64,000 bases of DNA from a virus, in the IMG/VR virus record IMGVR_UViG_3300036940_000232, one strand, 5' to 3'. The notes below the pieces were generated by a model, which was given only the letters and a program-made list of their open reading frames with translations, was not told where the DNA came from and ran no database searches. Each line of letters starts with the position of its first letter. The first letter of the stretch is position 1. This document shows positions 15,784-64,000 of the stretch, in pieces. Made by a program: the position numbers and the translations under genes.

Positions 15784-15814
15784 TTAATTGCCTCCGAAGA
15801 CATTGCTGCCTTCT

Positions 15815-15867: not shown

Positions 15868-16218
15868 CTATTTTAAGAGTACCCACTGCTCTCGATAACA
15901 CTCATATTTACCTGTTGAGTTATCAATGTGTGGATATAGTGTAATTTTCTTTGCGTCAACTGCAGCGTGTGGGATAACATACCATTGATCCTCTGGCTCA
16001 ATATATCCAATGATATAATCAATTGAACCTTGTTCATATGCTGTTCTATCGCATCCATTCACTGCTTCGAGTTTATAACGACGTCCTTCCGACATCGTCC
16101 TTGTTGATTTAACTTGGAGTCTTGTTAACCGACCGTTCCAGTCTGCAATTAAATCATATGGTAACGTATCGATTACTGGTTGACTTACTGCAAAATTCAT
16201 CTCTGTAAGTTTAATCAT
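15868..16218 (-). CDS. PD-(D/E)XK homing-type endonuclease (PDDEXK_5-like)
   Basis: YDLIAD...LQVKS motif; the conserved N-terminal helix continues upstream of the annotated ATG. Confidence 0.8.
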   Translation of the reverse strand: MIKLTEMNFAVSQPVIDTLPYDLIADWNGRLTRLQVKSTRTMSEGRRYKLEAVNGCDRTAYEQGSIDYIIGYIEPEDQWYVIPHAAVDAKKITLYPHIDNSTGKYECYREQWVLLK

Positions 16219-16826
16219 AGCTTGGAGTTCTGCAACTCCTCCTGCAATTCTTGGTTGAATAATTTCGCCTCCGTGTAATGTTCAGATATAAGATACAGTA
16301 ATGCTACCACATTAATCTCATCCATACCTTGTCCGGTAATACTATTATGGTAAATCGAATTATGTAATTCTTTTGGAATAAAAATTCCAATATCCGAATC
16401 ATTATTTAAATGTAAATGATGAAATTCAGAATTATCAAATCGTGTATTTAATGGATTGAATCCATATCCACGACGTTTGTGTGCGTCACGAGCTTTAACT
16501 AATTTACCAGCATCAGTTTTTCTATATGCGGCAACCTTTGTACATATATCATCTTTATGTTCAATATAATAAGATTTATCATACTCGCGCTTTTGTAATT
16601 TTATTTTATCAGCATTTTCTTCTAAGTATATTTTACGCTTGTCTTTATTATTTTCGTAATAAGATTTATTCCAAGCTTTACACTTATCAGGATTATCATC
16701 TCTAAACTTTTTATCAAGTTCTCTGCGACAATCTTTACATTGTGTACGTAGGCCATCTTTATGTGTTTTATCTTTATGAAAATTAGACTCATCTAATTCT
16801 CTATTACACCTACTACATACTTTCAT
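16215..16826 (-). CDS. HNH-type endonuclease with N-terminal Zn finger
   Basis: CxxC...CxxC N-terminus and FHHLH...IPKELHN C-terminus. Confidence 0.7.
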   Translation of the reverse strand: MKVCSRCNRELDESNFHKDKTHKDGLRTQCKDCRRELDKKFRDDNPDKCKAWNKSYYENNKDKRKIYLEENADKIKLQKREYDKSYYIEHKDDICTKVAAYRKTDAGKLVKARDAHKRRGYGFNPLNTRFDNSEFHHLHLNNDSDIGIFIPKELHNSIYHNSITGQGMDEINVVALLYLISEHYTEAKLFNQELQEELQNSKL

Positions 16827-17278
16827 ATAATCACTTTATGATATTCCCAATCCTCTGGAGGAAGGAAGTATTTTCCAGTCTGCGGCTCAAGTAGGTACAC
16901 AACAGAATCTTCTCCTACGAAAAGATTCAGCGAATGAACCCCTCCGCTTTCGCCAGGCTTACGGTCTACCTTCACTCTACCAAGTGCGTGACCCTGCCGT
17001 AGCATTGTAAAGTTAGCTTTCATCACGACAGAAAATCCGTCACAATCAAAAACTTCCTTTTCATATTTCATTTCTGGCACATAACTTGCGCCTACAAATT
17101 TTTCTAAGAACTCAAGATTGACAAGCATATAACTTGCATCTTCGCGTTCATAATCAACTTTAATATCAAGTGTCCCTTTAATCAGTGTATCCAATTCTTT
17201 AGCCATTACGTCAATTTGAGTTGTCTGACGCGGCATTAGTTCATATAAGAACTTAATTGCTTTGTTGATTAAATCCAT
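16823..17278 (-). CDS. Putative papain/transglutaminase-like cysteine peptidase
   Basis: FDCDGF (Cys) and HSLN (His-Asn) motifs; start moved to MDLINK at 17278. Confidence 0.55.
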   Translation of the reverse strand: MDLINKAIKFLYELMPRQTTQIDVMAKELDTLIKGTLDIKVDYEREDASYMLVNLEFLEKFVGASYVPEMKYEKEVFDCDGFSVVMKANFTMLRQGHALGRVKVDRKPGESGGVHSLNLFVGEDSVVYLLEPQTGKYFLPPEDWEYHKVII

Positions 17279-17747
17279 GTAATCTTTCCTGTGATAGATA
17301 TAATAATGCAATAATATTTATTTCATCCATACCTTGCCAACTAATACTGTTGTGAAAGATAATATTATGTAATTCTGCTGGCATATAAATACCAATACCA
17401 TGATCATCATCTATATGTAAATGATGAAAGTGACATCCTTCGAATGGTTCATTTAAAGGTTCGCATCCAAAGTTGCGTCTTTTGCTACAACTACGCGCTC
17501 TATACTCAGCCGCTTTATCTGGATTATTAAGTATCCATTCTCTATGTTTAGCATAATACACTTCTTGATTAGCTTTATAGTTTCTAGCATGCCTTTCTTT
17601 TGTATGAGTTTTATTTCTTTCATAATATGATTGCCCGCCTTTACGCTGACAATCTTTACACTGGGTTTGATATCCACGAGTTTTATGTTTATAAAAATTG
17701 GATTCATCTAACAATCGTCCACATTTATGGCATAACTTCATCATCAA
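17253..17747 (-). CDS. HNH-type endonuclease, paralog of 16215-16826
   Basis: Same Zn-finger N-terminus and near-identical C-terminus GMDEINxxALLYL. Confidence 0.7.
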   Translation of the reverse strand: MMMKLCHKCGRLLDESNFYKHKTRGYQTQCKDCQRKGGQSYYERNKTHTKERHARNYKANQEVYYAKHREWILNNPDKAAEYRARSCSKRRNFGCEPLNEPFEGCHFHHLHIDDDHGIGIYMPAELHNIIFHNSISWQGMDEINIIALLYLSQERLHGFNQQSN

Positions 17748-26113: not shown

Positions 26114-26512
26114 ATGGTAAAAATTGAAACAGTGACTTTGAAAGGAAATAACGATTATCAAACAGACATAAAAACGCTATCAGTCGAAGCTAATATGAAA
26201 CAGTCTAGAATTGTTTGCAAACATTGTAACAGATATGTTAAGCCAATTCGTGACCAGTCAATACAGCGTGAAGATTTTTCAGAAGATGAATGGGAAAAGA
26301 TTAAAGATACCATAGACTTTGAAATAACATGTTCAAAGTGTGGAAATACCGAATACGTGCAATACATTGGCATGAAGCATATTAACCAGAATACAGAACA
26401 TTATAAAGTTATTTGGGCATTTGCAGAACATAGACCAAACGATGTAACTATCGAAACTTTTGAAGAAGCTACTGGACTGACTCATTCTAGTAAGTTCCCA
26501 ATTATAGCTTAA
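26114..26512 (+). CDS. Early hypothetical protein with CxxC...CxxC Zn ribbon
   Basis: Own promoter and poly-T terminator. Confidence 0.7.
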   Translation: MVKIETVTLKGNNDYQTDIKTLSVEANMKQSRIVCKHCNRYVKPIRDQSIQREDFSEDEWEKIKDTIDFEITCSKCGNTEYVQYIGMKHINQNTEHYKVIWAFAEHRPNDVTIETFEEATGLTHSSKFPIIA

Positions 26513-37540: not shown

Positions 37541-37548
37541 AACAAATT

Positions 37549-37678
37549 GTGCCGGTAGCTCAGTCAGGCAGAGCGCTAAAATTTCCGTATACGCCTGTTC
37601 AAACCAAACGGTTTGTGTAGTACACGGTTACTTCGTCTTGTAAACGAGAGGTCAGTGGTTCAAATCCACTCCGGCACG
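37549..37678 (+). ncRNA. tRNA-Thr(TGT)-like RNA with a Y-like stem inserted in the anticodon arm
   Basis: Intact acceptor, D and T arms; CT-TGT-AA loop kept; about 55-nt hairpin insert carrying TGTAG-N7-TTACTTC. Confidence 0.8.
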
Positions 37679-37681
37679 TTA

Positions 37682-37753
37682 GAGGTGTGTGCAGAATGCG
37701 GTTACTTCAGAAATGGTTTGAAATGCACAACCGCATTCGTCTATTCACACCTC
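37682..37753 (+). ncRNA. Y-like hairpin RNA 1
   Basis: Two stems with an internal loop; TGCAG-N7-TTACTTC. Confidence 0.75.
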
Positions 37754-37760
37754 GTAGCAT

Positions 37761-37896
37761 GTGGGAATAGCTCAACAGGCAGAGCGTCAGCACCAATAAA
37801 GCCCGCTATCGCCAATTGAAAGCGTAAGCTTTCCGTAGATTGCGGATACTTCATGAACCGAGCTGAAGGTTAGCAGTTCGAGTCTGCTTTCCCACT
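37761..37896 (+). ncRNA. tRNA-scaffold RNA with a Y-like stem replacing the anticodon loop
   Basis: GTGGGAA/TTCCCAC acceptor, D and T arms, TCAGC/GCTGA stem; CGTAG-N7-ATACTTC. Confidence 0.8.
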
Positions 37897-37899
37897 TAC

Positions 37900-37971
37900 G
37901 CAGTGTGTAGCGAGCAGATACTTCAATGATATGCAGATATGACAACCGTTCTGCTTGCGTCGATTCACTGC
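37900..37971 (+). ncRNA. Y-like hairpin RNA 2
   Basis: TGTAG-N7-ATACTTC with a complementary 3' strand. Confidence 0.75.
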
Positions 37972-38010
37972 TAATACGAACACAAATAGAAGCATATAAA
38001 GAATAAACCA

Positions 38011-38084
38011 TTGGGAGTGTGTAGGTGACGGTTACTTCATTGAAACTGAAACCGATAACACCGTCATCGCTTGTTCACTCCCAA
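38011..38084 (+). ncRNA. Y-like hairpin RNA 3
   Basis: TGTAG-N7-TTACTTC; TTGGGAGTG/CACTCCCAA closing stem. Confidence 0.75.
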
Positions 38085-38096
38085 TACCAATCATTT

Positions 38097-38225
38097 GCGG
38101 AGGTTGCCCAGCCAGGCAAGGCGCCAGCATAATAGTGCGCTCTCGCCTTTCCCATGTTTTGCATGGTGTAGATAGCGCTTACTTCAGGGAGCTGGATTTC
38201 GGCGGTTCAAATCCGCCCCTCTGCA
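38097..38225 (+). ncRNA. tRNA-scaffold RNA with a Y-like stem replacing the anticodon loop
   Basis: GCGGAGG/CCTCTGC acceptor, CCAGC/GCTGG stem; TGTAG-N7-TTACTTC. Confidence 0.8.
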
Positions 38226-38247
38226 CTAAATATAATGGAGGATTAAT

Positions 38248-39924: not shown

Positions 39925-40116
39925 GGATAGGTAGCAAAGCTTGGCCCATGCAATATGATCGCGAGGCGGTTGGTATCTATGGCGCACATGATACCCATGC
40001 GAGTATATGGATTTTGAAAGCTAACGACTGCATGCGTTAGTGAGTACCATATGCTAGTGTGTTATTCAAGATGCATGCAGCATTTTGCGGCAGTTCAAAT
40101 CTGCCCCTATCCACCA
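39925..40116 (+). ncRNA. Oversized tRNA-like RNA (192 nt, encoded CCA)
   Basis: GGATAGG/CCTATCC acceptor plus A-CCA; D and T arms; large structured insert; anticodon unclear. Confidence 0.7.
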
Positions 40117-40404: not shown

Positions 40405-40574
40405 GCTCACGTAGCATTATAAGGCAAATGCAAGTGCATAATTGGATAATTGTTCGACATGATAAAGTTGCGGCCGCAACAAAAGTGCAGCGAGATTATT
40501 CATGGCACTGTCACCGTAGGATTTGCTAGCAAGATTCTACGATGCGAAGGTTCGATTCCTTTCCGTGAGCACCA
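40405..40574 (+). ncRNA. Oversized tRNA-like RNA (170 nt, encoded CCA)
   Basis: GCTCACG/CGTGAGC plus A-CCA; AGTGC/GCACT stem with an expanded loop; long variable arm. Confidence 0.7.
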
Positions 40575-40582
40575 AATCATTT

Positions 40583-40655
40583 GGGGATATCTCATAGCGG
40601 CTATTGTCTTCGGCTCCAGACCGGATGCTCGTCGGTTCGAGTCCGACTATTCCCA
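40583..40655 (+). tRNA. tRNA-Trp(CCA), intronless
   Basis: CT-CCA-GA loop; cloverleaf. Confidence 0.85.
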
Positions 40656-40702
40656 CATCAATATGTACTCGTATCAGAATTGGTATATGAGCTCGGCTGT
40701 TA

Positions 40703-41102
40703 AATTAGGTGAAATAATGTTTAGTGATTTAAAAAATTCGAAAAGGCAAGGTAATGTAGGAATTGGACATGCAATTGCTTACTTTACTACACAAGGTTAT
40801 ACAGTTAGTATTCCATTAACAGATAGTCAGGAATATGATTTAATTGTTGATATTAATGGAGAACTAAAGACTATCCAAGTCAAAACCACACAATCAATAG
40901 ATAAAAGTGGAGCATACCGAGTTGAATTAAGAACAATCACAAAATATTTAACTACAACAACAGAGAAGAAACCACTCTCTAAAGTAGATTTCCTATTTGT
41001 TTTAACAGAAACAAGTAATACGTATTTAATTCCTGGTAATTTAGTAGAGGGCAAATCTGGTATTTGCTTAGGCGCTAAATATAATACGTACCTAGTATAG
41101 TA
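40703..41102 (+). mobile_element. Endonuclease-encoding archaeal-type tRNA intron
   Basis: BHB boundaries enclose a complete ORF with its own AGGTGA RBS. Confidence 0.85.
40717..41100 (+). CDS. Intron-encoded PD-(D/E)XK endonuclease (PDDEXK_5/I-Ssp6803I-like), 127 aa
   Basis: K.QG..G...AIAYF, YDLIVD and IQVKT; true start is ATG 40717, not 40450. Confidence 0.9.
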   Translation: MFSDLKNSKRQGNVGIGHAIAYFTTQGYTVSIPLTDSQEYDLIVDINGELKTIQVKTTQSIDKSGAYRVELRTITKYLTTTTEKKPLSKVDFLFVLTETSNTYLIPGNLVEGKSGICLGAKYNTYLV

Positions 41103-41234
41103 CCCGAGTATTTGGAGGTTCGAGCCCTCCCGAGTACGTATGCATCCACGGATGCAGAATTTTGGCCAAGACCGCTGCTTATGGCGGTATATAAACTTAC
41201 TGCAGTATAGATGCGGTTACATAAGCTCAATTGA

Positions 41235-42086: not shown

Positions 42087-42159
42087 GCCCGTTTCGTATA
42101 ACGGTTTATTATTCGGCGTTGCCAACGCTGAGATCGGTGTTCGATTCACCGGGCGGGCA
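42087..42159 (+). tRNA. tRNA-Gly(GCC)
   Basis: Cloverleaf. Confidence 0.85.
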
Positions 42160-42244: not shown

Positions 42245-42316
42245 TGCCGGCTTAGTGTAGTGGCTATCATATGGGTTTTCATCCCGGTAACCTGGGTTCA
42301 AATCCCAGCGGCACCA
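42245..42316 (+). tRNA. tRNA-Glu(TTC), irregular acceptor stem, encoded CCA
   Basis: TT-TTC-AT loop; T arm intact; acceptor has a bulge. Confidence 0.7.
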
Positions 42317-42492: not shown

Positions 42493-42564
42493 CTGGCAGT
42501 GGCACAGAGGCTCTGCGCTAGGCTGTAGACTTAGTTCACGTCGGTTCGATTCCGGCCTGTCAGA
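42493..42564 (+). tRNA. tRNA-Tyr(GTA), archaeal type, intronless
   Basis: C1:G72, short variable loop, A73. Confidence 0.9.
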
Positions 42565-42941: not shown

Positions 42942-43340
42942 ATGGGAGAACTTCATGTAGCTAAACTATTAATAGAAAACGGATACTCCGTATTTCAATC
43001 ATTTGGAGATAATTCTAAAATAGATTTAATTGTAGTTGATGATGACTATAATACACATAGATTACAGGTCAAGGTATTTTCACGAGACAGTAGAGACACA
43101 AATGTAACATCTGTTAAGTTCGGAAAATCTGGACCAGGATACACATTTACATACACATCAAATATGTTCGATTGGTTCGTAATAGTCGATGTAGTTACAA
43201 CTGACGTTGCATGGATTCCAGTATCAATATTTGAATCATCAAATGCAATTAAGCCTAGTATAACATTAAGACATGTTATGCCTAAAAATAGACAAGACAA
43301 TGTACACATGTTTTCTGACTATACAAATATTCCATTTTAA
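42942..43340 (+). CDS. Free-standing PD-(D/E)XK endonuclease
   Basis: GEL.VAK.L, IDLIVVD and LQVK motifs. Confidence 0.8.
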   Translation: MGELHVAKLLIENGYSVFQSFGDNSKIDLIVVDDDYNTHRLQVKVFSRDSRDTNVTSVKFGKSGPGYTFTYTSNMFDWFVIVDVVTTDVAWIPVSIFESSNAIKPSITLRHVMPKNRQDNVHMFSDYTNIPF

Positions 43341-44079: not shown

Positions 44080-44550
44080 ATGGGAGAACTATGTAATGGT
44101 AGAATATCATATGTTATAAGCAATGAATGTTGGATTTGCACATCACATGCTCCACTAAAGAATAGAATTAGATTAGATGAGTATGGGTACTATACTATAT
44201 CTATTAATAATAAAACAGAATATATGCATAGATATGTATATAGGTTTTATAACGGAGATATTCCAAATGGATATGTAGTCAGACATACATGTGATAATCC
44301 ATTATGTATTAATCCTAATCATTTAATAATCGGAACACCAGCCGATAATGTAAACGATATGGTAATGCGAAATAGAAGTTGTATTGGTAGTTCTAACGGT
44401 AGATCCAAATTATCAGAAGAGCAAGTTATTAATATATTTTATAATACTAATTCTATTAAATCTATTGCAGATACATATAATGTAGACCCAAAGACAATTC
44501 GCAAAATTAAAAATAAAGAAATGTGGATTAACATAACGCGAGATTTATAA
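44080..44550 (+). CDS. HNH homing endonuclease (I-HmuI-like with C-terminal HTH)
   Basis: HR.VY...V.HTCDNPLCINPNHL..GT..DN.ND motif. Confidence 0.9.
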   Translation: MGELCNGRISYVISNECWICTSHAPLKNRIRLDEYGYYTISINNKTEYMHRYVYRFYNGDIPNGYVVRHTCDNPLCINPNHLIIGTPADNVNDMVMRNRSCIGSSNGRSKLSEEQVINIFYNTNSIKSIADTYNVDPKTIRKIKNKEMWINITRDL

Positions 44551-46949: not shown

Positions 46950-47021
46950 GTGGCTGAAGCAGAATAGCGATGCGTCGGGTTGTGATCCCGGAGGTAGCGG
47001 TTGCAAATACCGCCAGCCACC
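46950..47021 (+). tRNA. tRNA-His(GTG)
   Basis: Cloverleaf; C73; T-loop TGCAAAT. Confidence 0.85.
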
Positions 47022-48834: not shown

Positions 48835-49344
48835 ATGGAAAGAGAAAATAAATATGTATGGGTTACATTAGAAGACGGTACACATAATGTCGAACATAGA
48901 GTTATAATGGAAGCTCATTTAGGGCGTAAGTTAGATACTGATGAAATCGTACATCACAAAAATCATATCAAGTGGGATAATAGAATTGAAAATTTAGAAG
49001 TCATGGATAGAGCTGAACATTCTAGAATGCATAGACCAGACGCAGAAATAGAAATTCTAATATGCGATTGGTGTGGCGAAGAAGTTGAAAAACTCGCTGC
49101 AGAAATGCGCTATGCTAGAAATCATGGTACTGATAAATTTTTCTGTAATAAAAGTTGCGCAGGTAAATTTAAATATTATATATTAGGATGCCAACCTCCG
49201 AGTCAAGCGACTCGTTCTGCTGATATAGATGACGCAATTATTCTACAAGAGTTAGCAAATGGGCTAACAGGATATAAAATATCACAAAAGTATGACTGGA
49301 ATAAAACTACAGTTTATACGCATATTAAGAAGCTTACACAGTAG
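48835..49344 (+). CDS. HNH endonuclease (HNH_3-like) with Zn finger and HTH
   Basis: EHR.IME.HLGR.L...EIVHH.N..K.DNRIENL. Confidence 0.9.
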
Positions 49345-50799: not shown

Positions 50800-52353
50800 T
50801 TGGGTAAATTTAATAAAAAAGCAACATTAGAACAGTCAATGGCTAGGCATCCAGATGCAATAGTCAATCATGAAGGTGCCCTTGCGTATTCGATGTCTGA
50901 AAAGACAAAGCTGATGACCATTGCAGTTACGTGTCTGATTGGTGAATCAAAATTCTATGAGTCACCAGGCGCAGCAGATGCTAACCTCAGCAATGCAGTC
51001 GATGCAGTCCTTCGAACAGATCCAGAATTTGTATTAAAGTTAGCAGCTTTCTGCAGAAATCAGATGTATCTTAGATCACTTCCGATTTACCTGCTTGTGA
51101 AGTATGCAAACTATACCGGCCCACGAGTAGAAGTTCCCAATGCATCAGCATATGTGCCACAGATCGTAAGGCGCGCTGATGAACTGACAGAAGTAGTAGC
51201 AGCTCAGATGAACATGTATCCTAAAAAACGCAGGAAGTCTGGCGGAGTTCAGCTCCCAAGGATACTTAAAAACGGACTTGCTGAAGCTCTCAATAACTTC
51301 TCAGAATATAATCTCGCTAAGTATGACAGACCTGGCGATGTGAAAATCAAGGACGTTCTGTTCCTGACACATCCAAAACCAAAAGATGCAGCTCAGCAGG
51401 AAATCTTCGACAAGATTGCAGCAGGTATGCTTGACACACCTGAAACTTGGGAAGTCCTGTTGTCAGATTGGCAGTCAAAGTTCCCATCCAAGAGGGATGC
51501 ATGGATATATATCATTGATAATGTATTCAACAAAGATGGAAAGGTCAACAACTACATGGCGATGTTGAGGAACCTGAACAATATTCTGGAAGAAGATGTT
51601 CCTCCAAAATATATAGACAAAGTAGCAGAGATGTTACAGGATCCACAAGCGGTAAAGGCTTCAAAGCAATTCCCATACAGGTTCTTATCTGCATACAACA
51701 CAATCAAGTTTGCAAACAGAAGCAGAACAGAAGTAGATAAACTTAAGTCTGCTATTGAAAGAGCGCTCGATATTTCTGTCGAGAATGTTCCACAGTTACC
51801 AGGCAGCACACTTGTACTGATTGATGTATCTAGCTCAATGCAGGGTTGTACAGTCAGTAGGAAATCCGTTGTGAGATGTGCAGACATCGCATGTGTTTTC
51901 GGTGTAATGACTCCAAGAATCGTTGAGAAACTTCCAACAGTAGTTGCATTCGGAACTGATTACAGACAGATTCAGATTGCAGACAGCGACAGAATGCTTG
52001 AGACAGCCAATAAGATAATGAACCTTTCAATTGGTATGGGCACAAATCTTGCAGGCCCGCTTCAAGAAGTAACTAGAAAAGGTATTGTCTATGACAGAAT
52101 AATTATTTTGTCAGATATGCAGTGCCACAGGTACGGAGCGGAAGCGCTTGAGCAGTATCGCAGACAGGTCAATCCTAATGCATACATTTATTCTGTAGAC
52201 CTCTACGGATATGGAAGTGCATTGATGCCAGAAAATTCAAAGAATCTATGCCTAATGGGTGGATACAGTGATAAGATATTCAACTTCATCACTTCATTCG
52301 AAGCAAACCCAGCCACCATGGTTGAAAGGGTGGATGCATGGACGACGAACTGA
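50800..52353 (+). CDS. Ro60/Rsr RNA-binding protein (TROVE + vWA)
   Basis: N.EG..AY, R...YLRS.P, L.KY, TWE, Y.AMLRNL, QFPYRF.SAY and vWA DVSSSM...SDMQ; TTG start with AGGAGG RBS. Confidence 0.95.
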   Translation: MGKFNKKATLEQSMARHPDAIVNHEGALAYSMSEKTKLMTIAVTCLIGESKFYESPGAADANLSNAVDAVLRTDPEFVLKLAAFCRNQMYLRSLPIYLLVKYANYTGPRVEVPNASAYVPQIVRRADELTEVVAAQMNMYPKKRRKSGGVQLPRILKNGLAEALNNFSEYNLAKYDRPGDVKIKDVLFLTHPKPKDAAQQEIFDKIAAGMLDTPETWEVLLSDWQSKFPSKRDAWIYIIDNVFNKDGKVNNYMAMLRNLNNILEEDVPPKYIDKVAEMLQDPQAVKASKQFPYRFLSAYNTIKFANRSRTEVDKLKSAIERALDISVENVPQLPGSTLVLIDVSSSMQGCTVSRKSVVRCADIACVFGVMTPRIVEKLPTVVAFGTDYRQIQIADSDRMLETANKIMNLSIGMGTNLAGPLQEVTRKGIVYDRIIILSDMQCHRYGAEALEQYRRQVNPNAYIYSVDLYGYGSALMPENSKNLCLMGGYSDKIFNFITSFEANPATMVERVDAWTTN

Positions 52354-63085: not shown

Positions 63086-63793
63086 ATGGCAGATGAAGAG
63101 ATTGAGGTTAATTACCTCAGACAATTAGATTGGTTTAATCCAACTACAATGGAAGCACCTACCGTTCATATTATTGGTTGTGGAGGAATCAATTCCTTTA
63201 CAGCTTTTTATCTTGCGCAGATGGGAATAAAGAAGCTTGTGCTTTGGGACTACGATGAAGTCGAAGAGCATAACATTCCAAACCAGAATTTCCTTTTGGA
63301 ACATATTGGAATGAAGAAGACGACCGCACTTGCAAAACTTATCAAAGATAAAGTAGGCATTGAAGTTAAAGTTAAGGATAGATTCTTCAGTGAAGATTCA
63401 AAAATTACTGACGACAATGCTATTGTGATTGTTGGTACCGATAACATCTCATCCAGAAAAACAGTGTATGAACACTGCAAAGGTAATGAGAAAGTAAAAA
63501 TGTTCATAGATGGTCGTCTAGGCGGACTTGCATTCAATATATTTACAATCAATCCGCACGAAGAATCTGACCAAGAACTCTACGAAGAAAACTTGTTCGA
63601 AGAAGGTGAATCAGACGGTCTTCCATGCACAGCGAAATCAATCATATTCGTTGGTGCTCACATTGGTGCACTTATTTGTCAGCAAGTATTTGCTATAATG
63701 ACTGAGCGCCCAGTTACGAAGAACGCATGTTATGATCACCTGAACAATCTTATTGATATAGATGGTAAGGCGATTATGTATGGTACAGCATAA
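63086..63793 (+). CDS. ThiF/E1-like adenylyltransferase
   Basis: RQ, IIGCGG, DYD.V..HN..NQ, K, GTDN..SR, DGR.G and candidate catalytic PCT. Confidence 0.9.
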   Translation: MADEEIEVNYLRQLDWFNPTTMEAPTVHIIGCGGINSFTAFYLAQMGIKKLVLWDYDEVEEHNIPNQNFLLEHIGMKKTTALAKLIKDKVGIEVKVKDRFFSEDSKITDDNAIVIVGTDNISSRKTVYEHCKGNEKVKMFIDGRLGGLAFNIFTINPHEESDQELYEENLFEEGESDGLPCTAKSIIFVGAHIGALICQQVFAIMTERPVTKNACYDHLNNLIDIDGKAIMYGTA

Positions 63794-64000
63794 ATTCTTA
63801 AAGATTAAAACCCACGGTGATAAAGCCAACCACGGCATCACCGTTGGTGAATGTGAGGTCACAGAAAAACTTGACGGAGCAAACTTCTCATTTGATATTG
63901 ATGATGAGACAGGCGAACTCCATTTCTATTCACGAAACAATGAATTATGTGGCGGGCTTGAGAATGGCAAGTCATGGGTACGTGCGACCGAATCAATTAG
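63780..64000 (+). CDS. ATP-dependent RNA ligase (Rnl2-like), partial
   Basis: Not in the ORF track: MVQHKF...VTEKLDGANFSF...SRN; open to the window end. Confidence 0.75.
   Translation, partial: MVQHKFLKIKTHGDKANHGITVGECEVTEKLDGANFSFDIDDETGELHFYSRNNELCGGLENGKSWVRATESI

Follow-up and report, generated by a model that had tools for sequence, protein, structure and literature searches.

A probable bulge-helix-bulge intron with a PD-(D/E)XK homing-endonuclease-like gene in the only tRNA-Asn gene of a tailed virus

Where the tRNA introns of archaea and eukaryotes come from, and how they spread, has long been an open question, and the usual proposals are decay of group I introns, transposition, and protection against integrating elements. 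In bacteria, I-Ssp6803I, the founding PD-(D/E)XK homing endonuclease, is encoded in a group I intron of the tRNA-fMet gene of Synechocystis PCC 6803. In archaea, the bulge-helix-bulge (BHB) introns of rRNA genes often contain homing endonuclease genes, of the LAGLIDADG type (PMC6125680; PMC3984707), and the halovirus HGTV-1 has one intron-bearing tRNA together with a large tRNA set, RNA ligases, RtcB and a CCA enzyme (PMC13532342; PMC8651126). Here we describe a locus in the IMG/VR virus record IMGVR_UViG_3300036940_000232, analysed as a stretch of 64,000 nucleotides (nt) that we call the window. We consider it probable, from the sequence, that the only tRNA-Asn gene of an archaeal tailed virus is interrupted at position 37/38 by a BHB intron, that the body of this intron is the gene of an I-Ssp6803I-like PD-(D/E)XK protein, and that the element is spliced by EndA and moves by homing.

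The initial annotation of this DNA had named the endonuclease-bearing rRNA introns as precedent, which the papers cited above bear out, and had judged a tRNA intron of the present kind to look undescribed. As far as the published literature goes, the searches agree with that judgement: full-text literature searches found no publication on an endonuclease-bearing BHB tRNA intron and nothing closer than the systems above, and two reviews of tRNA introns and tRNA diversity (PMC4090602, PMC4033280) make no mention of an open reading frame (ORF) or homing endonuclease in BHB tRNA introns. The combination of BHB intron and endonuclease was found described only for archaeal rRNA genes.

Anatomy of the split tRNA-Asn gene

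With its intron search switched on, ARAGORN calls a tRNA-Asn(GTT) with a 400-nt anticodon-loop intron at 40664-41139; a default tRNA scan, run without that option, lists 19 tRNA genes in the window and misses tRNA-Asn. Reading of the sequence places the two exons at 40665-40702 and 41103-41138 on the plus strand, separated by a 400-nt insert, which confirms the observation of a split gene. The 5′ exon (nucleotides 1-37 of the tRNA) consists of the acceptor strand GTACTCG, the D arm, the anticodon stem strand CTCGG and the loop portion CT-GTT-A. The 3′ exon (nucleotides 38-73) starts with C38 and CCGAG and continues with the variable loop TATTT, the T arm GGAGG-TTCGAGC-CCTCC, the acceptor strand CGAGTAC and a G discriminator, with no encoded CCA. 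The exon ends proposed in the initial annotation (CTCGG-CT-GTT-A and C-CCGAG) are the ones seen here, and the intron-enabled ARAGORN call agrees with them.

When joined, the exons give a standard tRNA-Asn cloverleaf with G73 and all stems paired, and ARAGORN calls the joined sequence without its intron option. At the DNA level the intron boundary is ambiguous by 1 nt, nucleotide 38 being either A40703 or C41103. With C38 the predicted mature loop is CUGUUAC, which is the loop of the intronless tRNA-Asn in the haloarchaeal virus HRTV-15; the identical anticodon arm with A38 is present in other viral intronless tRNA-Asn genes (L033). Two neighbouring tRNA genes can mimic a split gene, as at two of the homologous loci discussed below (L088, L090). 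At the tRNA-Asn locus this artefact is ruled out, because the sequence contains no second half-tRNA beside either exon and the 5′ exon, which begins 9 nt past a tRNA-Trp gene, runs directly into the leader of the ORF. In the window the split gene is the sole tRNA-Asn that ARAGORN finds with introns allowed. Two other "introns" that the program proposes, at 37548-38226 and 39925-40116, are tRNA-like RNAs and not BHB introns.

The presumed intron occupies 40703-41102, as given by ARAGORN and by a pairing script that applies the canonical geometry: a 5′ bulge made of nucleotides 36 and 37 and the first intron nucleotide, a 4-bp helix between nucleotides 32-35 and the intron, and a 3′ bulge in which nucleotide 38 follows the final two nucleotides of the intron. 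At the canonical 37/38 site the script finds a strict motif (hBHBh′) of 18 bp in total, consisting of a 6-bp outer helix h, a 3-nt bulge, a 4-bp central helix, a second 3-nt bulge and an 8-bp helix h′. Helix h is the anticodon stem plus G26.U44, and both flanking helices exceed the required 2-3 bp. In the central helix, CTGT (40697-40700, nucleotides 32-35) pairs with ATAG (41097-41100) at four of four positions (C40697-G41100, T40698-A41099, G40699.T41098 and T40700-A41097), and the 3′ strand includes the TAG stop codon of the ORF (41098-41100). The bulges are TAA (40701-40703) and TAC (41101-41103), for which the established BHB geometry predicts cuts at 40702/40703 and 41102/41103. Helix h′ is formed by ATTAGGTG (40704-40711) and TACCTAGT (41089-41096), the latter falling within the final codons of the ORF (..Y L V).

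No alternative register within ±3 nt forms a BHB according to the script. The pairing of CTGT with ATAG and the two bulges, as first proposed, are thus recovered in full and in the sole available register, and the h′ pairing first given as ATTAGGT with ACCTAGT holds and is one pair longer than had been noticed. To gauge chance, the exons were held fixed and random intron ends of matched composition were drawn in 200,000 trials. Four central pairs plus an h′ of at least 7 bp appeared in 3 of the 200,000 (about 1.5e-5), and four central pairs plus an h′ of at least 3 bp in 288. When the 13-kb tRNA region is scanned without anchoring, about 100 weak BHB-like motifs turn up, equal to the number in shuffled sequence, and the scan was dropped both as support and as a means of finding introns; the significance of the motif therefore lies in its strength combined with its coincidence with the exon ends.

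The encoded protein and its family

The intron body is a 127-aa ORF on the plus strand (40717-41100) whose product belongs to the PDDEXK_5, or I-Ssp6803I, family of PD-(D/E)XK homing-endonuclease-like proteins. It matches PF11645 (PDDEXK_5) with an E-value of 5e-20 and 72.3 bits, the family cut-off being 26.1. A profile of 18 homologs has a single match in the PDB, I-Ssp6803I (2OST, E 6e-11). The AlphaFold2 model (pLDDT 85, pTM 0.80) has 2OST_A as its best PDB match (TM 0.83, E 2e-9), followed by Hjc resolvases, SPARDA nucleases and restriction enzymes. In the family alignment D36 and D41 are invariant in 29/29 sequences, and K56 is almost so (at least 90%); all three are present in the query, as is the conserved tract Q54-V55-K56. 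By comparison with the family, D36, D41 and K56 would be the catalytic residues.

The alignment with free-standing homologs spans the whole ORF, which leaves no RNA-only segment in the intron. Its non-coding sequence amounts to 16 nt, of which 14 precede the ATG and 2 follow the stop codon. The initial annotation's picture of a 400-nt intron consisting almost wholly of a PD-(D/E)XK gene of the I-Ssp6803I family is in this way borne out by the Pfam match, the profile and the fold. A Shine-Dalgarno-like AGGTGA (40707-40712), 4 nt before the ATG, sits in h′, and the stop codon, as noted, in the central helix. A 137-aa gene call starting from an ATG at 40687 in the 5′ exon was rejected in favour of the start at 40717, which fits both the family N-terminus and the ribosome-binding site. 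This in-frame upstream ATG (40687-40716) would add 10 codons, could be read from unspliced RNA only and is probably not a real start. An Rfam scan by E-value across 38-50 kb gives tRNAs only, with no match to RF00028 or any other ribozyme at E ≤ 1, and a ribozyme in the intron is therefore very unlikely.

About 240 homologous loci from IMG/VR, GTDB genomes and metagenomes were examined, together with cultured phages. Homologs on viral contigs are mostly free-standing genes in tRNA arrays, oftenest next to tRNA-Tyr, tRNA-Ser or tRNA-Asn; those in bacterial genomes and gut metagenomes mostly have no tRNA gene within 120 nt (139/244 loci). Copies adjoin tRNA-Asn in Bacillus phage BCP12 (80 nt downstream), in Halorubrum virus HRTV-15 (2 nt downstream) and in G001, a 54-kb relative of the window virus (60 nt upstream). 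Only the window's copy lies in a BHB intron. In the viruses with archaeal-type tRNAs (L180/181, L211, L246 and HRTV-15) the endonuclease gene is free-standing, and the closest homolog of the window's copy is the free-standing one of L180/181, at 52-53% identity. When viral, genome and metagenome collections were searched with single proteins and with profiles, no relative exceeded 54% protein identity, and the intron recurred only in one identical contig. The two contigs L180 and L181 (Ga0075113_1005147 and Ga0208647_1002393) belong to another virus whose tRNAs are of archaeal type; they carry 13 tRNA genes in 1.6 kb, among them a class I tRNA-Tyr with C1-G72, a tRNA-Trp with A73 and an intron-less tRNA-Asn; the homolog lies 13 nt upstream of the tRNA-Tyr gene. 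A clade of endonucleases specific to tRNA-Asn was considered and dropped, the tree of 194 homologs being poorly resolved and the nearest rows mostly neighbours of tRNA-Tyr.

Several other homologs stand inside a tRNA gene or close to one. In loci from gut Clostridia metagenome-assembled genomes (MAGs; L095-L172) the homologs lie about 400 nt downstream of tRNA-Met with a group I intron between, probably the bacterial arrangement of I-Ssp6803I, and L096 has a group I intron match to RF00028 (55.7 bits, 880-1079). Two Muribaculaceae MAG contigs (L132:326-995 and L154:80-759) contain a chromosomal tRNA-Tyr with a 586-596-nt intron (586 nt in L132), in which a PDDEXK_5 ORF is followed by about 190 nt that resemble a small ribozyme core and have no RF00028 match at E ≤ 0.1. 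A further viral contig, of bacterial type (L085:1132-1605; IMGVR_UViG_3300010356_000728), carries a clean tRNA-Ser(TGA) with a long variable arm whose anticodon loop is interrupted by a 385-nt PDDEXK_5 ORF, with no BHB and no Rfam ribozyme match at the split; L031 and L103 look similar. Such genes may be dead or may use a novel splicing route. As candidate BHB introns all of the nested homologs L031, L085, L088, L090 and L103 were rejected, since none has a BHB, and L088 and L090 look like the neighbouring-tRNA artefact mentioned above.

The window holds two further PDDEXK_5 genes, both free-standing: one between tRNA-Lys and tRNA-Met (42942-43340, plus strand) and one on the minus strand (15868-16218), whose ortholog in G001 is the copy 60 nt upstream of an intact tRNA-Asn. 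At least four HNH-type genes also lie next to tRNA genes (16215-16826 and 17253-17747 on the minus strand; 44080-44550 and 48835-49344 on the plus strand). With three PDDEXK_5 and at least four HNH genes, the tRNA loci of the window are heavily colonised by selfish nucleases.

The virus, its relatives and its probable host

The window is part of a tailed virus, with terminase, portal-like, tape-measure and baseplate genes on the minus strand at 1-25 kb and a tRNA array at 37.5-49.4 kb. It also encodes Ro60/TROVE, NAMPT, NMNAT, a class II CCA enzyme, a Ubl/JAB/E1 set and the start of an RNA ligase. The last of these, an N-terminus matching PF09414 at 63762-63998 (plus strand) and cut by the window end, is a possible helper in exon joining.

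The locus was found in oil-field, aquatic, subsurface, wastewater and bioreactor metagenomes. The JGI contig L005 matches it without a single difference. In contigs from wastewater, a bioreactor and the subsurface the flanks are 98-100% identical, and tRNA-Trp is joined to tRNA-Val through 13 nt (TAAAATTCGAATA). The unit missing from these relatives measures 577 nt (40657-41233) and comprises the tRNA-Asn, its intron and two downstream hairpins. The polymorphism is thus at the level of the cassette and not of the intron, and the search of related viruses for empty alleles suggested in the initial annotation turned up none at the locus, only relatives without the whole 577-nt unit. G001 has an intact, different and intronless tRNA-Asn (L001:1853-1925), between PDDEXK_5 and glycosyltransferase genes in the structural module. 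Comparison with G001 shows that this gene is deleted in the window virus, where an 11-nt scar remains (15799-15809, minus strand); the split gene is in consequence the only tRNA-Asn of the virus. Loss of the other tRNA-Asn fits a working split gene without proving one.

The host was approached mainly through the tRNA genes. Bacterial tRNA-Tyr is class II with G1 and A37, bacterial tRNA-Trp has G73 and bacterial tRNA-Gly has U73. The window's tRNA-Tyr (42493-42564, plus strand) is a 72-nt class I tRNA with a short variable arm, C1-G72, G37 and A73; its tRNA-Trp (40583-40655, plus strand), the neighbour of the split gene, has G1-C72 and discriminator A73; and its tRNA-Gly(GCC) (42087-42159, plus strand) has discriminator A73. 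All three are of the archaeal/eukaryal type. Among the controls, all of about 45 tRNA-Tyr genes in 80 viral-contig loci are class II, with lengths of 79-92 nt. In the full set of loci retrieved, U73 occurs in 26/31 control tRNA-Gly and G73 in 23/30 control tRNA-Trp. The only two control tRNA-Trp genes with A73 are those of L180/L181, which also have class I tRNA-Tyr. No bacterial-type control phage locus shows the archaeal-type set of Tyr, Trp and Gly; four other metagenome loci have class I tRNA-Tyr.

Other observations agree with an archaeal host, the kinds of metagenome in which the locus was found among them. G001 encodes a family B polymerase, a Cas4-like nuclease and a DHH protein, and one of its proteins resembles the small subunit of the archaeo-eukaryotic primase weakly, with a score under the Pfam cut-off. 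The structural proteins were set aside as uninformative: the portal has no match, the major capsid protein matches only distant actinophages, and the matches of the terminase large subunit are split between Thermus phages and the halovirus HGTV-1 (second-best match). EndA (PF01974) is present in 4/4 archaeal control genomes and in no bacterial control; it was not found in G001 or in the scanned ORFs of the window. For EndA and RtcB together, neither a dedicated scan of 50 plus-strand ORFs at 26-63 kb nor the scans of other window ORFs found a virus-encoded copy (G001 was not searched for RtcB). From the identity elements of the three tRNAs and the observations that agree with them, the host is very probably an archaeon. 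The claim of an archaeal host, which had been drawn from the intron alone, thereby gains the support of three independent sets of identity elements. In practical terms, an uncultured, tRNA-rich virus of oil-field and subsurface samples is here assigned to an archaeal host by domain-specific tRNA features.

Some further features of the virus may be recorded here. Two Rfam tRNA matches are missed by ARAGORN, namely a tRNA-His(GTG) with an odd D arm (46950-47021) and a weak tRNA-Glu(TTC)-like match with encoded CCA (42246-42313); with these added, nearly all amino acids are covered by the virus. A Ro60/TROVE-vWA protein is encoded at 50800-52353, and two oversized tRNA-like RNAs with encoded CCA (39925-40116 and 40405-40574) are Y-RNA-like. 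To our knowledge, Ro60 systems have been reported from bacteria and eukaryotes and none from archaea. A 132-aa ORF at 26114-26509 gives sub-threshold zinc-ribbon matches, including one to the RNase P subunit Rpr2/Rpp21 (E 8e-4), which may be due to chance.

Proposed mechanism, alternatives and known systems

From the anatomy of the gene, the protein family, the type of the tRNAs and the distribution of homologs we infer a sequence of cleavage, ligation, translation and homing. The tRNA array would be transcribed, and the anticodon arm, the anticodon loop and both intron ends of the precursor would fold into the hBHBh′ structure. Host EndA would cut after A37 (40702) and after 41102, and host RtcB or the viral RNA ligase would join the exons into a tRNA-Asn with the loop CUGUUAC, the intron probably being circularised. 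Either the precursor or the excised intron would serve as the message for the endonuclease, h′ masking the ribosome-binding site. Both this site and the stop codon are embedded in the splice helices, which would couple expression of the endonuclease to folding and splicing. At the DNA level, the enzyme would cut an intron-less tRNA-Asn gene at its palindromic anticodon arm, the expected target being ..GAGCTCGGCTGTTA[A/C]CCGAGTATT.., and the element would then be copied in by repair.

A number of observations weigh against this reading. The minimum-free-energy fold of the precursor is not the BHB but a helix of 19 bp in a slipped register, with two 1x1 loops. For a 52-nt mini-substrate the BHB conformer has -15.0 kcal/mol compared with -16.4 kcal/mol for the minimum; we judge the gap of 1.4 kcal/mol to be small because nearest-neighbour energy rules penalise 3-nt bulges, a judgement made without folding a known BHB substrate as a control. 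Among the sequencing runs that contain the locus none is recorded as RNA, the contigs compared with it being DNA, and splicing is a prediction from sequence. The other copies of the intron (L005 and runs X1-X3) are identical or nearly so and offer no compensatory changes, and the relatives in three metagenomes present no intron-less allele at the locus, the whole tRNA-Asn unit being gone instead. In the protein, residues ~71-85 depart from the GGN motif of the family and are modelled with low confidence, and its endonuclease activity is for that reason uncertain. Finally, the archaeal host is a deduction from tRNAs, several genes of the virus have a bacterial flavour (the class II CCA enzyme and Ro60/TROVE), and the closest cellular relatives of the endonuclease are all bacterial.

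One alternative is that a free-standing endonuclease gene hit its own cleavage site in the anticodon loop and destroyed the tRNA-Asn gene, in which case the pairing would serve only to hide the ribosome-binding site and the BHB would be incidental. Viral tRNA genes are often dispensable, the relatives of this virus do without the tRNA-Asn unit, and tRNA genes split by PDDEXK_5 with neither BHB nor ribozyme do exist, as in the tRNA-Ser(TGA) of L085 and in L031 and L103; weak BHB-like motifs, moreover, are common by chance when they are not anchored. We nevertheless regard a dead gene as unlikely. The motif here is strict, spans 18 bp and lies exactly at the exon ends, in the single register that restores a tRNA and with a chance of 1.5e-5. 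Both exons are intact with all stems paired, and the other tRNA-Asn copy has been lost in the lineage. Masking of a ribosome-binding site, for its part, needs neither a 4-bp helix with the anticodon loop nor two 3-nt bulges. A bacterial host would require a different route, in which an RNase III-like enzyme cuts the long helix and the viral CCA/HD enzyme and RNA ligase heal and seal the halves. The 19-bp helix with two 1x1 mismatches would suit such a cut, the virus does encode an RNA ligase, a class II CCA-adding enzyme and Ro60, and the relatives of the endonuclease are mostly from bacteriophages and Clostridia. However, an RNase III-type splicing route of this kind is not known and its cuts would miss the precise 37/38 ends, the tRNA-Tyr, tRNA-Trp and tRNA-Gly have an archaeal identity unlike that of every bacterial-type control phage locus, and the same kind of RNA toolkit is present in the halovirus HGTV-1; together these points make the bacterial route quite improbable.

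It can also be imagined that the intron is self-contained and that the encoded PD-(D/E)XK protein itself cuts the BHB RNA. The catalytic domain of EndA has been argued to be related to the PD-(D/E)XK fold, 2OST has four chains, I-Ssp6803I being a tetramer like some EndA enzymes, and the element would then be independent of its host. Yet the protein has no Pfam match to tRNA_int_endo, EndA is absent from the top 50 of the fold search, and the free-standing homologs have no BHB beside them, so that we give this idea very little credence. A cryptic self-splicing ribozyme, of group I or another type, that overlaps the ORF would have precedents in the same family, which occurs in bacterial tRNA group I introns (the RF00028 match of L096, the tRNA-Tyr intron of L132 with about 190 nt outside its ORF, and the intron of I-Ssp6803I itself). 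With no ribozyme match at E ≤ 1 in 38-50 kb, only 16 nt of non-coding sequence and an end-to-end ORF alignment that leaves no RNA-only segment, such a ribozyme is barely conceivable.

If the EndA-spliced intron that we favour is accepted, its likely origin would be a free-standing, tRNA-gene-targeting endonuclease gene, of the sort found in viral tRNA arrays, that entered its own target. We propose that the inserted gene persisted because pairing evolved between its 5′ leader and its 3′ end, in imitation of a BHB. On a bolder view, which we hold to be possible rather than probable, an archaeal intron was born from a selfish gene alone, by insertion into its own cut site with a BHB-mimicking leader and with no ribozyme ancestor. 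If that is true, homing endonucleases that viruses take from host to host would generally supply and spread the 37/38 tRNA introns of archaea and, through descent, those of eukaryotes, and the many short ORF-less tRNA introns would be decayed remnants of endonuclease-bearing ones. An endonuclease-bearing BHB intron at the canonical tRNA site would supply a concrete DNA-level mechanism of mobility, and the same virus, with its free-standing sister copies beside tRNA genes, would hold a natural before-and-after series.

Among described systems, the archaeal rRNA introns (e.g., that of the Desulfurococcus mobilis 23S gene with I-DmoI) are similar in being protein-spliced BHB introns with an endonuclease gene as body, dependent on EndA and probably circularised. 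They differ in being cellular and encoding LAGLIDADG enzymes, whereas the present candidate is in a tRNA gene at 37/38, in a virus, and encodes a PD-(D/E)XK protein. HGTV-1 resembles the window virus in having a tRNA intron in a tailed archaeal virus, and differs in that no endonuclease gene is reported in that intron. I-Ssp6803I (2OST) is of the same family by profile and fold, and its gene is likewise in a tRNA anticodon loop, where the DNA of the stem is a natural palindrome; its intron, however, is a self-splicing ribozyme in a bacterium, and here a BHB stands in the place of a ribozyme, none having been found. The free-standing PDDEXK_5 genes of viral tRNA arrays (BCP78/BCP12, Mycobacterium phage Wilder, HRTV-15) share both family and neighbourhood with the window's copy, and T4 SegB is also a free-standing homing endonuclease gene in a viral tRNA array. 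Such genes are intergenic and need no splicing, unlike the copy inside the tRNA-Asn gene. One endonuclease family would thus follow three lifestyles according to the splicing options of its hosts, as a free-standing gene, in a group I intron and in a BHB intron. For cyanophage psbA, Bonocora and Shub reportedly proposed collaborative homing, or capture of an intron by a free-standing endonuclease. That model likewise explains how a free-standing endonuclease could come to reside in an intron of the very gene it targets. In the psbA model an ORF-less ribozyme intron comes first, whereas the route suggested here would need no prior intron, only ends that imitate a BHB.

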